Assembly: GCA_964019425.1 (NCBI GenBank)
Contig: OZ025794.1
Location: forward strand, 1,240,001-1,304,000
Length of the DNA stretch: 64,000 bases
Source: Flectonema sp. DT1601
Lineage: Eukaryota
Reading direction: 5' to 3'
Under the pieces are notes generated by a model. It was not told the origin of the DNA, ran no database searches, and worked only from the letters and a program-made list of their open reading frames with translations. Of the stretch, positions 3,654-45,904 are shown one piece after another. The position numbers and the translations under genes are program-made. Position 1 is the stretch's first letter, and every line of letters begins with the position of its first letter.

Positions 3654-3995
3654 CACCTCACAAAGTATCATTAAACCTTCCTAAACGCTGCATCCTTTCT
3701 GTTACTGCAGTTGGCGTTCTGATCTCATTTATTACAAACTGATGAGTCAAAACGAATTTATTTTAATTTTTTTTATTGTTTGTTTTGGTCACTATCGATG
3801 TTTAATTGTTTCCTGGCAGACAGCGTGTCCCACCCTTACTAACACGCGATAACTCTTCCAGTTTTTGTAAATTTGAAAATATATTTTTTAAATCTCTTTA
3901 TCTATCTATTCAGGTTCGCTATTATTATCATTACTGAGTGAACACTTGTGAGAAGTAACGGCTACGATGGATACAATTATCTTCTCAGAACATTA

Positions 3996-5357
3996 ATGAC
4001 TTCCACTTACAATAATGATATCCAATCAAGCAGCAACATCCTCGTAATTGGACCTTCCCTCAGCGGTAAGTCCTCTTTCATTCGAACAGCCGTAGAACAA
4101 CAAAAGAAACCTCTTTATGAACTTACTCCAACTGCAATATACGAAACAAAATTCGCCAACGGCGACAGATGTTTATCACCAGGAACAAAGTTATCAGGGG
4201 GAGTAATGCTCATTAGGCATATTGATGTTCTTTTAGAAGATAAGGAACTTTGGGTTCAATTTAATAAAATACTCTCATCAGAGAATCGAACTTGGGCTAT
4301 TGCTTGTACAGCTAAAAGGAAGGAAGTAATTCCGAAGACTATTCTGCAAAAGTTTAATTCTGTTGTGGAAATGCAAATGCCTGATGCTAAGGAGAGATTG
4401 AACTTTTTAAAAACGACAACAGCAACAACATCAGCAGACCTCTCTCTCTCCGAACTGGAATCCATGGCCAACAGATTAGGAGGAGTTGGGTATGGGGATC
4501 TACGAAGTATCCATCAGCATCGATCTGATTCTGTTCCCTGGTCAGTGATAACATCATCAACGTGTTCTATAATGTCACGTCAATACAACATATCGACACC
4601 TCATGTTGTTTGGAATGACATAATCGGTCACACTAACGCAAAACAATCAATCAAAACAGCGTTATCAATTCATTCATTACCACCTGATGTGCTTTCAAAC
4701 TTCGCATTATCACCATGTACTGGTATCCTCTTATATGGTCTTCCTGGTAATGGAAAGACTATGCTTGCGAAGGTGATAGCGACTGAATTACAAAGTGGAT
4801 TTTTATTAGTTTCTATTCCAAGTTTAGTTAAGAGTTATGTAGGAGAGAGTGAGGAAGCTGTCAGGAATTTGTTTAAAGCTGCAAAACAGAATTCTCCTTG
4901 CTGTATCTTTCTTGATGAGGTACAGGCGATATTCGGTGACAGACAAGACTCTCATGGAACTGATCACGACTCAAGACTTGTCTCGCAATTATTAGCAGAG
5001 ATGGATAATCTTCCTTCTTCTGTTACAGTTATCGCAGCGACTAATGTTCCGTCAGCTTTGGACTCTTCAATCCTCTCCCCAGGTAGGCTAGATATGCATA
5101 TTCATGTGAGACCTCCGACTATTTCAGAGCGTATAAAATACATTTCAACATTCCTCCCAACCCATGCTGATGAAATAGGAAATCTAACGGCAGGGTATTC
5201 GTATGCTGACTTGACTGCTCTTAAAAATATTATTCAAATCAACCTCCCTGATGATGATGATGATGAAGACTTTGATATATCGTCTGTAATGTCTTTAACA
5301 CACCCATCTTACTCAAATGATGAGTTGAGTTCAGTTGAGAATTGGATAGCTAGATGA
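3996..5357 (+). CDS. CDC48/AFG2-like AAA+ ATPase (degenerate D1, intact D2)
   Basis: GPSLSGKS in D1. D2 has GILLYGLPGNGKT, Walker B IFLDE, VIAATN and PGRLD. First in-frame ATG is 3996. Confidence 0.85.
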   Translation: MTSTYNNDIQSSSNILVIGPSLSGKSSFIRTAVEQQKKPLYELTPTAIYETKFANGDRCLSPGTKLSGGVMLIRHIDVLLEDKELWVQFNKILSSENRTWAIACTAKRKEVIPKTILQKFNSVVEMQMPDAKERLNFLKTTTATTSADLSLSELESMANRLGGVGYGDLRSIHQHRSDSVPWSVITSSTCSIMSRQYNISTPHVVWNDIIGHTNAKQSIKTALSIHSLPPDVLSNFALSPCTGILLYGLPGNGKTMLAKVIATELQSGFLLVSIPSLVKSYVGESEEAVRNLFKAAKQNSPCCIFLDEVQAIFGDRQDSHGTDHDSRLVSQLLAEMDNLPSSVTVIAATNVPSALDSSILSPGRLDMHIHVRPPTISERIKYISTFLPTHADEIGNLTAGYSYADLTALKNIIQINLPDDDDDEDFDISSVMSLTHPSYSNDELSSVENWIAR

Positions 5358-24308: not shown

Positions 24309-24344
24309 AATACTACTTGGTATTTTTTTTTTTTTTTTTTTCTT

Positions 24345-24470
24345 GTACCGACGTAGTCGGAGAAAAAACTATTCAGATTGAAGGCCGATATTTCTAATGA
24401 TTTATTTTCCCCGTGCGACAGGATTTTGTCTGCGTTCAACGAAATATAAGGCTAATCTGAATGGTTTTTT
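24345..24470 (+). mobile_element. ~125-bp non-autonomous element, family A, copy 1 (terminal hairpin plus asymmetric inverted repeats)
   Basis: Near-identical reverse-complement copy at 37309-37440. CCGAC-GTA-GTCGG hairpin, then AAAAAACTATTCAGATT...AATCTGAATGGTTTTTT. Confidence 0.8.
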
Positions 24471-33614: not shown

Positions 33615-36134
33615 AATATTAAATTAAGTTGTCGTCGTTGATCTCCGAATTGAACGCCCTTTACGCATTCCACTTTGCAGTCGAATTCTCTTAAGGGATT
33701 ATCCCTGTTGTTCAATGAACGTAGGGTACTATATCATTTCATTTCATTTCACTTTTTTTTTCCCGTCTTTTTTTTGCCTACTACCACCCGCAAAAACAAG
33801 TGTCTCAGTAAAGTACTGCTCTTTATCGTGCGTGGTTCCATTAGTCTTGTGCTGGTGCATTTGAAACATTTGGACAAATCTCTGTGTGGATTCGTTTTGG
33901 GCAGTTCACCTGTTGTATACATAGCATTTGGGGAAAAAAAAAAAACATATCTCTCGCTTTAATTGTAGTGACTGTTGCAAAACTCTGTTGTGTGGGGGTT
34001 TTGTTGTTATTCATTTATTCACTATTTATTTATTATTGTCTTTTATTTTTTTTTGTTTTTTCCACTGGCTGATATTTCACCACCATTAATACATTCGCTG
34101 CATAATGTGCTGCTCCTATTAAAATGACAAGTAATTTCCGTGTGTGTTTTTTTCCCATTGCCTCGATTGTCGGCATGAAGCTTTACGTTTTTGCGTAGTT
34201 ATTGGTTCTGGGTTAGAAGGGGAAGAAGAAAAAAAAAAAAAAAAAAAAAAAAACGGTTATGAGGAGCGTGGATAAAATTACCGCATTTTGTTTCGAATAG
34301 TAGAGAACCAGACACACACTTTCTCGTTAGTGCAATGTCGAGTTACAGTATGATACAAAAATAATAATAATAATAAATTTAAGAAAAAGGAAAAAAAAAA
34401 AAAAAAGATCAGTGGGTGTGAATGTTCCGCGGGATCTCACCTGCAGGAAACTGAACTGAAAAAGAACAGCCTTATTCGTGCTCATAGGGAGAATTTAAAA
34501 AAAAAGATTCTCATGTTTGTTTTGTTCTGAGTCGGTTTCACCCCAACCCTCCACCCACCCACAGCATGTCTTATCAAAACATCGATAAACTGAAGTATGT
34601 TTGATTTAGTTATAAAATACCATTTTCCCCCTTCATTTTCTTTTTTAAAAAAAATCTATTACCCATCCAAAAGATTATTTCTTCGTTCGCGCTAAATTAC
34701 AACATTACCAGTTCATACTCGGTGTTGAAAAAAAAAAAAAATAAAAAGAAAGAAAGGGATTATTGCAAAAAAAAATTAACATTTCATGTTATTTCTTTTT
34801 TTTTTTTTTAATGCTTAGTTTCTTCTAAAATACAGCCTATCATCATCATTACACTTTGGGGTGATCTTAACCTTTAAAATGATACAATTCTCTGCCCGCC
34901 CTCCCACCCACCCATGAATGTTTTGATAAGTAAGGTTATATTTCACAAAAAAAAAAAAAAAAATGGAGGTGGCATTTCAAGATCAATGCGAAAACGCTTG
35001 ATGATGAAATCATTTTGTTGCAAAAAATCTATAATTATAATTCTTAAAAGCTGCAAAGCCTACGGGGCGTGGCCATGGTTCTCTCATATTAATTAATATT
35101 GAGTGACCGTTATTTGATTTCCTTGCAGTTAATTGATTATTCATTTATTTGTGGTAACTAACTGCTATTGTCCCTAGAAGTTAAGAGGGACTGAAACTAC
35201 GTATTGCACAGCGTTTTTAGAATAATTGTGCTTTTTATTATTTTTTTTTATTTTGATTTAGTGCTCAATATTCTAACTGTTGTTATGGATAATACTAACT
35301 AACCTTTCCTGTGTGGGTGGAGCGATTTTTATGTTGTAAAAAAGAAAAATTAAAATTTATGGTGTCTGCAATGCGAGATACTGACGAAAATTTTTCCCAA
35401 CCAAGAAAAAAAAAAAAAATTCTTTCCTTTTTTTTCTTTGTTTCCCCTCCGGTCTTAGTGATGCATTGGACATTGCTTGATACTATTGGGAAGGAAAAAA
35501 AAAAAAACTTTGAAAAGTTTTTGAGAAGGAAAAATTCATCAAAAAAGGAAAAGAAAAAGAGGAGAAGAAAAGGATTCATTCATGAGATACTAGTTTTAGT
35601 TGGTTGTGACGTCCTTTTCGTCTCACCGTTGTTAAGCCCAGAAGTGAGATTCCTTGTGGGATTCGTTTCTCTACTTGACGTCTTGATATCTACTTTCCCA
35701 ATTTCTTTTTTATCATTAGTAGCAAAGCTGTAGCTGTGTTAACTCAGGAGAGACTCTTTTCTTATCATTTTTTGACAACGATTCCGTGCTTTTCTCTCTG
35801 TTTTGTCGTCCCCATCCGCGTGTTGGTTATGATTTAGTATTAATTTCCTGTTTTCTCGTTTCCCGTTTTTTGATCCGAATAGTTCTCTACATCAATATAT
35901 TGATATTAGGATTTACTTAGCACCCACTCATTCTGTTGGTACTCCCGTTTATCCCCGAAAACCAAAACTATTTGTTTGATGTCCTTTACGATTTAATGAT
36001 TTGATTTTTTTTTTTTTTTTTTTGGGAAAACCCCTAATTCCACAAAAATAGTTTGCGAAATCGCCAACTCATCACAAAAATTTTAACCGCTCGAAACAAC
36101 CCAACATGACGGGAAAATTTTCAGAATTTTTTGA

Positions 36135-36213
36135 GCTCCGGTGGTCTACTGGTTATGACCGCCGAATCATGACCCGGAGGTCTCGGGTTCGAACCCCGTG
36201 ACATCCTTTTTTT
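36135..36213 (+). pseudogene. tRNA-like unit (CAT at the anticodon position) with A/B boxes and T7 terminator
   Basis: A box TGGTCTACTGG 36142-36152 and B box GGTTCGAACCC 36186-36196. D and T arms pair; acceptor and anticodon stems do not pair properly. Confidence 0.75.
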
Positions 36214-36450
36214 CTCTTTTTCGTAATGACGGAAAATGAGACCAAAACATAGTCAAAGGGCGGATTGATCACCCACTGGTCGAGTTGAGACATATTCCCG
36301 TTGCAATAAATCACCAAGACCCCTCCCGTGTGATCGATCACTTTAAAATGTTACTGTGCAGTTCACCAGTGAGACTAAGACCTCCAACCAAAATTCACCA
36401 GACTTCAAGTTCCAAATTAGGTAATTTTTGTTAGGCATATTCGAACCATC

Positions 36451-36505
36451 GACAACAGAAATTCTCACGTTAGTAAAAGCCTTTAGAAATGTGGCTTAAC
36501 GATCC
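36451..36505 (+). pseudogene. Condensed LSU rRNA domain V fragment, sense on +
   Basis: ACAGAAATTCTCACGT / GTAAAAGC / GAAATGTGGCTTAACGATCC are three collinear pieces resembling conserved LSU sequence, with the spacers deleted. Confidence 0.55.
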
Positions 36506-36544
36506 TCATCATCGATTTAGGTTCGTGACTCAGAAGCCTTCGTC

Positions 36545-36937
36545 ATGTGGCCCTCCTCCCAGCCAAACTCCCAACATGACTGGTGTCTCCAAACGAGGGG
36601 TCGAGCCGAAGCCCGTTTGTCGCCGGAATCGGAAAAGCCACGAGTCCGAAAGGACCGTAACCTCCGAAGAGGCAGCTGCCGTTCCCCCATCATTGGATAA
36701 GTAAAGCGACGATAAGAGTAGTGGTATTTCATTGTTGGTAAACCTCCCACCTATAACTACACCCGACTAGAGTCAAACTCAACAGGGTCTTCTTTCCCCG
36801 CTGACAGTTTCAAGTCCGTTCCCTTGACTGCTGTTCGCCAGATAGTAGGTAGGGGCAGAAGGAATCTCATTGGTCCATTCATGCGCGTCTTTAATTAGAA
36901 GACGAGGCATTTGGCTACCTACCGAGAGTCATCAGTT
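36545..36937 (-). pseudogene. LSU (28S-type) rRNA fragment, approx. helices 69-80, degenerate
   Basis: Minus strand reads GGTAGCCAAATGCCTCGTCTTCTAATTAAAGACGCGCATGAATGG...CAGCGGGGAAAGAAGACCCTGTTGAGTTTGACTCTAGT...TGAAATACCACTACTC...GGGAGTTTGGCTGGG, with an internal deletion and substitutions. Confidence 0.92.
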
Positions 36938-37007
36938 GCAAATTTGTTTTTTCTGGTTGGACTTTGTACGGGACAGGCGGGCTTTTATTAGGGCTCCCCC
37001 CCTTGGG

Positions 37008-37052
37008 GGGGGGCTTGCGTCCCGCCAAGAATTTGGCGGACGCAAGCCCCCC
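37008..37052. other. 20-bp GC-rich hairpin (one bulge, 4-nt loop)
   Basis: GGGGGGCTTGCGTCCCGCCAA-GAAT-TTGGCGGACGCAAGCCCCCC. Confidence 0.9.
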
Positions 37053-37064
37053 TTGCACTCTTCC

Positions 37065-37148
37065 CAGCTTAGTAGGCTAAAAAACAAAAAACCCGCCGCA
37101 AGCCAAATTTTTGGGTCAAGTTCGAGTCCTGGTGGACAACTTTTTTTT
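37065..37148 (+). promoter_or_regulatory. Second, more degenerate tRNA-like Pol III unit
   Basis: A-box-like CAGCTTAGTAGG 37065-37076, B-box-like AGTTCGAGTCC 37119-37129 and T8 at 37141-37148. Confidence 0.5.
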
Positions 37149-37308
37149 GTAGGGAGTTGGCGATTTCGCAAACTATTTTTGTTGAATTAGAGGTTTTCCC
37201 TTTTTTTTTTGTAATTTTTTTTAAACAAAAAAAAAAAATTACCCAAAATAAGAAAATACGTGTTTTTTTTGCTATGCCGATTTTTTCAACATCAGCATAG
37301 TAAAAAAA

Positions 37309-37440
37309 AAAAAACCATTCAGATTAGCCTTATATTTCATTGAACGCAGACAAAATCCTGTTGCATGGGGAAAATAAATCACGGCCATTAGAAATATCAG
37401 TTTTCAATCTGAATAGTTTCTTCTCCGACTACGTCGGTAC
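37309..37440 (-). mobile_element. Family A element, copy 2 (inverted relative to copy 1)
   Basis: Reverse complement matches 24345-24470 except for a few substitutions and a 6-nt indel. Confidence 0.8.
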
Positions 37441-38294
37441 AAAAAAAATTTTTTTTTGACAAGTAGTCTCTCGTATTATTTCAGTCATCTTTTTAATCTA
37501 TTTTCTCCTATTATTTTTCTCTGCAGTACAGCGATGGAGAAAAAAACAAGTTCCACTCCGGATGTTGTTTATTGGTTCATTCATTTCAGTCTTATTATTC
37601 TGTACAAACGAATAAGGAAATAAAAACATCACGGAGGCAGGTAAAGAAAGAAATTTATGTAAGTTATTTTCCCTGGATCTTCGACTTCCCTTGTATTCGG
37701 AAGAAGAAAAAAAAAAAAAAAGGAAAAAACGTCTGAAAAGAAAGTGTTATGTCGTTGTGTAATTCTTTTTTTTGCAAAATGTAAAAGAAAAAAAGAAGAA
37801 AAGAAAAAAGGAAAAAAATAATAAAAAACAAACGGGCAAACGTACTCATACTATCTTCTGTTTTTTTTCGACAAACGAGAATTGATATAAAAAAAAAAAG
37901 AAAAAAAAAAGGAATAAAGAATCATTAAAGAACTTACATTTCTTTTACGTTATTTTGACCCCATTCCGCTTCACTCGAACTTTCGTAATCCAAGGGAGTC
38001 CTTTCGTTCTTTCAAAAAAAAAAAAAAAAAAAAGTTCTGTTCTTTTAAAAATAATATTTCTAAAATGGTGAAAAAAAAAAAAAAAAAAAATAAATAAAAA
38101 TAAAGCTTTAATATTTCACATTCCTTTTTCCTTTTTTCAATAAATCAGGAGTGATCGAACACAAGTTTTTTAAATAATAATAATAATAATAAAAAAAAAT
38201 ACTACTCATGCTTTGGACGATCAGCTGAAGGAATATCACCAATTTAAAGGGCATTCATATTACTCAATTAAAACAGTATCTGCAAATATATAAA

Positions 38295-44334: not shown

Positions 44335-45207
44335 TCTTTTCAACTTACTGACATCCACACCAACATCAGATGGTTATCGTATTTGGTGTTTTGGCTTTTA
44401 TTTTTATTTTACGGAATTAACTCTTCCTGTGTGTGTGTGAGGGGGAGAGTGATAAGGTGGACCAAAACGAGAAAAAAAATGAACTTCTTTTTTTGTGAAA
44501 TTTTTTTTTTTTTTTTTCAGGTGTTCCTTCGTTTCTTCTTCACGAACTGTTTTAGAAATTTCTCCCCTTTTTTTTTCGTTCTTGCTTAATTATTTATCAT
44601 TCAGCATGTTGACTTCTTTGTAAATGGGAAATCATCCATACATAAGTCTATTAGTATTATTATTATTATCGTTTAATGGTGTTTTTCTACTGCTTTAATT
44701 CGCGAGATGAATGGTACGTGAGTTACCTCGGCATGGGTTTTTTAATGTTCCACACTGTTATCATTTGCCCTGTTGGCTAGATGCATTAATTATTTCTGAG
44801 CTTTCCTACGGCTGTCCCATTTTTGCAATTACTACATAAGTAGTTCTATGCACGTGTGTGTTTTTTTTTTTTTTTTTTTTTTTAAATAAACACGACGACA
44901 GAATCATAATTGTAAAATAAATAAAAGGGGCGAACATATACGGCAATGCGAAGTATTCTTTTTTCCTTTCCTTTTTTTTTTCCTCTTCTTTTTTTATTTT
45001 TTCTCTCCTCAGAAGAGTATGTTTATTATTTATTAACTGAATTGTATGTATTCTTTTCCTTCTCCCTCCACCAAAGAAACTTGGCAAAATATTACGATTG
45101 CCTGTTTTATGGTGACGGTTCTTTTGTTTTTATTTTTGTGCAAAGACCAGCAGTACTCTTCCTAGATAGCTCTTTTCGTATCGTCCCAACATAACGACGG
45201 TATGTGT

Positions 45208-45312
45208 ATCCCCAAATTACCAGATTCGACAACGTCTTCTGGTCAATATGACAAGAAATATATTTCCCTTTTTTTTTTCAAAACGTTCCTTTCTTTGATA
45301 AGCAACTTCAAC
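45208..45312 (+). repeat. Dispersed repeat family B, 5' partial copy
   Basis: ATCCCCAAATTACCAGATTCGACAACGTCTTCTGGTCAATATGACAAGAAATATATTTCCC is nearly identical to the sequence from 45696 onward. Confidence 0.9.
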
Positions 45313-45695
45313 AACGAGACAATAAGTGAAACCTACTCTGCCATACATTGTACCTTAGTTTTGGTTTCTCAGGGCTCACGATTATTTCGTAATTGAATAA
45401 CTCGATTCCGTACTGCACTGAATGACACCACAGAAAAAGATACATATATTCAGATATGTTAGAAATATTTATTATATTGTAGGGCATGTACGTCATTTGC
45501 AGATTGTTAGCCTATATTAACATTATTAGTACTGTGTCGTGAGTTTTTTTTTTATTTCACTATATAGCTTTGATACAATATAGAGATTTATATTCGTATA
45601 AACCAAATCAACCTCATCCGTAACAGATGTTAATTATCGTTATGTTTGTGATACAATTCAAACATTCAACCTCCCCAGCTTGGTGATAGTACGTG

Positions 45696-45904
45696 ATCCC
45701 CAAATTACCAGATTCGACGACGTATTCTGGTCAATATGACAAGAAATATATTTCCCTTTTTTATGCAATCTTTTTTCTAAACGTACCTTTACTTTGATTA
45801 ACAACTACAAATAATTTTATTCAGTCAAAGTGCTTGATATTAATTTTATTTTAATACCCTAAAGTTGTTACTGTTTCTTACGTTGTCAAAGTTTCAGCCC
45901 TCCC
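45696..45904 (+). repeat. Dispersed repeat family B, longest copy
   Basis: Overlaps in sequence with all three other copies. Confidence 0.85.

Follow-up and report, generated by a model that had tools for sequence, protein, structure and literature searches.

A likely non-autonomous inverted-repeat transposon carrying rearranged 28S rDNA in a probable diplonemid genome

Pack-MULEs and Pack-TIRs are non-coding, are bounded by terminal inverted repeats (TIRs) and capture host DNA in pieces (PMC8277862, PMC6446971). The capture has been modelled as gap-filling or as fork stalling with template switching (PMC8277862), and a target-site duplication (TSD) of 8–11 bp is reported for MULEs (PMC6446971). 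The element described here occupies 1,177 bp (36024-37200) of a 64-kb stretch of DNA, the window, and is alike in having TIRs, host DNA captured in pieces, no coding capacity and a candidate duplication of 8–11 bp, which here comprises up to 10 T and has a length unreadable in a homopolymer. It differs in its cargo, which is rRNA coding sequence instead of protein-gene exons, in two tRNA-like cassettes and in a probable euglenozoan host. Merlin elements have 5'-GG ends, TIRs of 24–462 bp and TSDs of 8–9 bp and are found in Euglena and kinetoplastids; diplonemids are not mentioned in the main text of that paper (PMC8101967). The present element also starts with GG, and because its candidate TSD is a T run of unreadable length, its ends fit Merlin as well as MULE.

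Pokey and mPok, piggyBac elements of Daphnia, are likewise DNA transposons with rDNA-derived sequence, and the 28S TTAA targeted by Pokey lies at the start of the present cargo (PMC3849761). The rDNA-derived cargo of Pokey consists of IGS/ITS2 repeats, and Pokey integrates into 28S with duplication of TTAA (PMC3849761), whereas the cargo here is 28S itself, the element lies in a T run with protein genes on either side, and the TTAA is destroyed. SINE28 (mentioned in PMC5786205) and other rRNA-derived retroposons are also dispersed 28S-derived sequences (PMC10946416, PMC5786205). These are retroelements, whereas inverted repeats delimit the present element, and its 28S piece lacks a poly-A tail. 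An R2 lineage with a 28S-derived 3' UTR has been described (PMC5035012), and MITE-like origins have been speculated for diplonemid introns (PMC12621601). A table in a 2024 review (PMC10946416, section 11) lists 5S-headed retroelements, SINE28 and Pokey spacer repeats; a DNA transposon with 28S coding cargo appears neither there nor in the titles and abstract openings of the literature searched.

About 3,600 dispersed 28S pieces, each up to 10% of the gene length, are reported for Diplonema papillatum (PMC10161547), which belongs to what is likely the same host group; their size matches the ~390 nt of the main piece found here. They were compared by their authors to TRIMs and SINEs, apparently without a named carrier, and Additional file 1 of that paper may describe carriers.

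The inverted-repeat element and its setting

The window consists of eukaryotic DNA with few introns and ~37% GC, and the scrambled 28S region sits in a 4.6-kb gap separating protein genes. The host is likely a diplonemid, because a pyridoxal kinase encoded 1 kb to the right of the element has D. papillatum as its best named match (48%, behind unnamed transcriptome and assembly proteins). One sequencing run (share 0.06) over 35500-36740 gave three short contigs that were less than 90% alike and carried no information on the host.

The element encloses the whole 28S mosaic (Table 1). The sequence-only reading of the mosaic had mentioned neither its inverted repeats nor the A/B-box cassettes or the altered TTAA site. 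No inverted-repeat matches beyond the two ends were found in the 64-kb window, and none occurred in 100 shuffles. A 9-nt direct repeat flanks a random 1177-nt interval of this window with a frequency of 2e-5. No long ORF was found in the element, the longest overlapping one having 106 aa (ORFs were judged by length only), and the window held no second copy. A 26-mer of the TIR and a 23-mer of the altered TTAA site (GGTA version) gave no matches in genome contigs (viral and prokaryote-genome contigs for the TIR), collections not expected to contain this nuclear genome, and TIR-like matches were found in 0 of 23 metagenomic LSU loci. TIRs, lack of transposase coding capacity and captured host sequence are features of non-autonomous TIR transposons (MITE-like or Pack-TIR). 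The element, which is without genes and known from one copy, is therefore likely a non-autonomous cut-and-paste TIR DNA transposon, as judged from its sequence. Membership of piggyBac/Pokey was considered and rejected: the flanks are intergenic T runs, with neither a TTAA duplication nor a 28S insertion.

Table 1. Features of the element and its cargo, in window coordinates
Feature	Position	Strand	Description
Left flank, candidate target site	36005..36023	.	T19 run
Left TIR	36024..36080	+	57 bp, starts GGG, 91% complementary to 37144-37200
Second copy of 11-mer at 36570	36100..36113	+	13/14; spans the two positions at which the main piece differs from rRNA
tRNA-like cassette	36136..36213	+	A-box-like 36142, B-box 36186-36196, D-/T-arm-like hairpins, then T run; no complete tRNA
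Piece A	36249..36277	+	28S strand up to and through the A-loop hairpin, ~Rfam model 2912-2941; extends weakly to 36293
10-nt exact 28S match, unproven	36420..36429	-	placed and oriented as expected for sequence between B and A; p = 0.06
Piece B	36451..36506	+	chain of 28S blocks, ~Rfam model 2680-2775, ~43 nt of spacers lost
Main 28S piece	36545..36937	-	~390 nt; Rfam RF02543, BLASTN, pairwise alignment
Altered TTAA site	36920..36923	-	TTAA has become GGTA, which repeats the four bases that follow
GC-rich hairpin block	36993..37052	.	15-bp perfect arms 37008-37022/37038-37052 and a C7/G run palindrome
Second A/B-box-like cassette	37065..37148	+	B-box-like 37119-37129, then T run
Right TIR	37144..37200	-	pairs with 36024-36080
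Right flank, candidate TSD	37201..37210	.	T10 run, <=10 bp

For the two cassettes, an A-box..B-box pattern was built from the consensus and both strands of the 64 kb were scanned; folding was also used. The pattern occurred only twice, at 36142-36195 and 37065-37128, both within the element and each in a cassette just inside one of its ends. ARAGORN and Rfam at default settings reported no tRNA at the cassettes, and relaxed settings gave noise only. Such boxes might act as Pol III promoters of tRNA origin or as sites for factor binding.

Several further repeats were seen. An imperfect 20-nt palindrome lies inside each terminal repeat (36050-36069 and 37155-37174) and is a possible transposase-binding site. 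In the window, a ~140-nt interspersed repeat occurs at 37309-37448 and 24337-24470 in opposite orientations with 90% identity; an A run terminates both copies and the repeat is SINE-like. Just left of the copy at 37309 lies a 22-nt inverted repeat with a 3-nt loop (37263-37309). A ~120-nt local direct duplication (45200-45311 and 45689-45810) has 84% identity, and on the minus strand (22545-22517) a B-box-like motif leading into a long T run resembles the right cassette of the element.

The 28S cargo

As reference, 23 metagenomic LSU rDNA loci were retrieved with a motif from the main piece. They are not the host's own rDNA, and some differences from them may be host-specific. Two close loci were checked and are contiguous eukaryotic LSU genes; diplonemid 28S is reported to be contiguous (PMC9082867), and the reference loci are presumably themselves diplonemid. 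The closest loci were L019 and L008, with 88% over the main piece including its variable parts (19 of 23 loci compared; three of another LSU type and one short locus were left out). Invariant columns were taken from 14 loci, with nine of the 23 left out. In one of the 23, L014, an LSU gene of another type (3945-5021) is followed by U5, two U1 and U2 snRNA genes within 1.6 kb, a compact rDNA–snRNA cluster.

The sequence-only reading had taken 36937-36545 on the minus strand for LSU rRNA with a ~20-nt deletion, and the searches bore this out. BLASTN aligned 36558-36937 with L019 at 87% over 407 columns (E 2e-141), and pairwise alignment extended the match to about 36545 and placed a net 22-nt deletion near 36763. 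The main piece corresponds to ~415 nt of 28S and covers what we take to be about H69–H80. Between 36920 and 36558, five substitutions were counted in 285 columns invariant among the 14 loci (98% identical), together with one 1-nt and one 22-nt deletion in conserved core. A search for the deleted 22-mer elsewhere in the element returned only 8-nt matches, which is chance level.

The 5' end of the main piece carries, besides the altered TTAA, a 1-nt insertion that creates a second short tandem. The TTAA is retained in all 22 loci that span the site. I-PpoI cleavage leaves this TTAA as an overhang. Judged by its flanking bases, the site is the Pokey target, with the R2 site a few bases away (PMC3849761), and the I-PpoI site (PMC2034484); the main piece begins ~14 nt ahead of the R2/Pokey site. 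We infer that GGTA is a repair scar, chance or a host variant being other readings. A functional split-LSU fragment of the kinetoplastid or euglenid type was considered and rejected on the 22-nt deletion, the altered TTAA and the absence of flanking rDNA.

For the short pieces, the whole 320-nt left interior was scored with fixed scoring against the next 374 nt of 28S. Inverted LSU motifs with their spacers removed had been proposed at 36451-36505, and they form a collinear chain there, piece B, which scored 33.9 over 36453-36506 with cheap deletions. The A-loop-like piece proposed at 36261-36277 is present on the plus strand and longer than claimed (piece A, score 33). Neither score was reached by any of 1000 dinucleotide shuffles or 778 window tiles, so that against the metagenomic loci the short plus-strand pieces match LSU better than chance and on the opposite strand to the main piece, and the description as a sense/antisense mosaic holds. 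The minus strand of the left interior gave p values of 0.09–0.26 against the same 374 nt. Among 17 tiles of L019, the two containing the A and B positions scored highest. Piece A is identical to L019 at 25 of 30 positions, and its 5' extension aligns in only 6 of the 18 loci that reach there, including the two that most resemble the main piece; piece A carries lineage-specific letters, and A and the main piece belong to the same LSU lineage.

All three pieces derive from one ~730-nt stretch of the gene. Read on the minus strand, their order (main, B, A) is the gene order, with B and A each flipped, and the far end of A lies ~310 nt from where the main piece ends, against ~320 nt in rRNA. The short pieces are about six times more diverged than the main piece, with 8 of 74 invariant columns substituted, compared with 5 of 285 (Fisher p = 0.0012). 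A hint of a sense remnant at 36545-36507 gave p = 0.02 under loose and 0.32 under strict scoring. Further LSU sequence in 36278-36450, 36507-36545, 36081-36220 and 36938-37143 was not convincing on either strand (p 0.02–0.98 over many tests). The search for longer chains comprised 42 segment-target-scoring rows and 8 further rows, with lowest p values of 0.013–0.04, uncorrected. Since the DNA between the pieces has no convincing LSU match, an rRNA origin is shown for only ~85 nt of the ~320-nt stretch to the left of the main piece; the other ~235 nt have no assigned source.

Origin of the mosaic

The favoured explanation, held to be probable, is a non-autonomous Mutator- or Merlin-type Pack-TIR of a likely diplonemid, in which 28S rDNA was probably captured and reshuffled by repeated template-switch repair and probably travels as passive cargo. 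The supporting observations are the 57-bp inverted ends, the T runs on both flanks, the absence of a long ORF and the three ordered 28S pieces, together with the 11-mer copy and the short tandem duplications where the main piece starts on its 5' side. A break inside the element would have been filled from an rDNA template, by gap-filling or by fork stalling with template switching. The 3' half of the captured 28S would, later or concurrently, have been inverted in pieces, deleted and overwritten. The main piece would be younger, either as a later capture or because it was refreshed from rDNA like the Pokey spacer repeats, and the GGTA would be a repair scar or a junction at a hotspot of rDNA endonucleases. 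A transposase encoded elsewhere would have moved the unit into the T run. In yeast, inverted templated insertions from the same locus occur at breaks (PMC11724301), the rDNA repeats of Pokey evolve in concert with rDNA (PMC3849761), and MULE-like ORFs are present in D. papillatum (PMC10161547).

Stepwise, microhomology-mediated capture and inversion had been one of two origins proposed from the sequence. A stepwise history of capture and rearrangement is supported by pieces A and B, which match LSU above chance and show more decay than the main piece does. The data do not establish microhomology as the driver: the deletion ends that were tested share 0–1 nt, and the repeats are only post hoc hints. 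A motif said to occur at both 36100 and 36570 is indeed there, as an 11-mer with 13 of 14 positions alike when extended. Some shared 11-mer arose by chance in 11% of 3000 shuffles (p = 0.11), and one covering both sites of departure from rRNA in 0.2% (p = 0.002, post hoc), which hints at copying inside the element.

Selective retention of functional-centre pieces, the other proposed origin, was not borne out. Positions invariant among the 14 close LSUs made up 71 of 79 kept and 265 of 284 lost positions, and positions identical to a distant LSU 63 of 79 kept and 221 of 275 lost (80% vs 80%, p = 0.87). A nearly invariant core of ~140 nt between B and A has no significant match in the element; this missing block we take to be H89–H90 with the equivalents of A2451 and U2506. 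With conservation equal at kept and lost positions and most of the peptidyl-transferase core absent, the functional-centre reading is unsupported. Picking pieces out by familiar motifs would by itself create an impression of functional parts.

A possible but doubtful alternative is a nested insertion, in which a younger 28S retroposon with a GC-rich hairpin head and a 28S body (~36550-37068) entered an older inverted-repeat element. Such a retroposon would either resemble SINE28 or be a processed rRNA copy generated by an enzyme of LINE/R2 type. An imperfect 14-nt direct repeat at 36550/37055 brackets the main piece and the hairpins (12/14, the best in the tested windows; p = 0.018, post hoc), and counts against the favoured reading because it also fits a nested insertion. 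The much younger age of the main piece and its start ~14 nt before the R2/Pokey site point the same way. Compared with SINE structure, the element gives a mixed picture, with this imperfect repeat, A/B boxes followed immediately by T runs, and no tail, poly-A or other, at the 28S piece. R2-like and LINE ORFs are present in D. papillatum, and its 28S pieces are likened to SINEs or TRIMs (PMC10161547). Against this, rRNA similarity continues a few bases past the supposed duplication, and A and B come without overlap from the 320 nt of 28S that immediately follow the main piece, which would be rare for two unrelated captures.

That the cargo is selected, its 28S homology or an antisense or Pol III transcript aiding the element, appears quite improbable. 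Pairing with rDNA, nucleolar tethering, a decoy for rDNA endonucleases and escape from silencing would be the routes. The main piece is 98% identical at invariant columns beside decayed neighbours, three clustered substitutions destroy exactly the core of the TTAA target, and the two A/B-box cassettes are the only two in 64 kb. The kept pieces, however, have no excess of conserved positions, the peptidyl-transferase core is lost, and the T runs after both cassettes would terminate Pol III before it reached the 28S cargo. A single ordinary decayed rDNA fragment with chance short pieces, or an assembly chimera, would suit a left interior mostly without assigned source but is highly improbable and largely refuted, as A and B each outscore all 1000 shuffles and all 778 tiles and adjoin the main piece in 28S, piece A carries lineage-specific letters, and the inverted ends are clean with flanking T runs.

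Implications for dispersed 28S fragments

Taken alone, one 1.2-kb copy is a curious but neutral repair product. It seems unlikely that a family of diplonemid DNA transposons holds the R2/Pokey/I-PpoI target region of 28S between two Pol III cassettes, renews it by recapturing it repeatedly from rDNA, has the TTAA knocked out against cutting, and scatters thousands of ~400-nt 28S fragments across diplonemid genomes. The element may account for dispersed 28S fragments like the ~3,600 of D. papillatum. If it belongs to a family, it would provide a testable carrier for such fragments, would show Pack-type capture in Euglenozoa, and would point to a cause of spurious rDNA signal when diplonemids are surveyed by metabarcoding or FISH.
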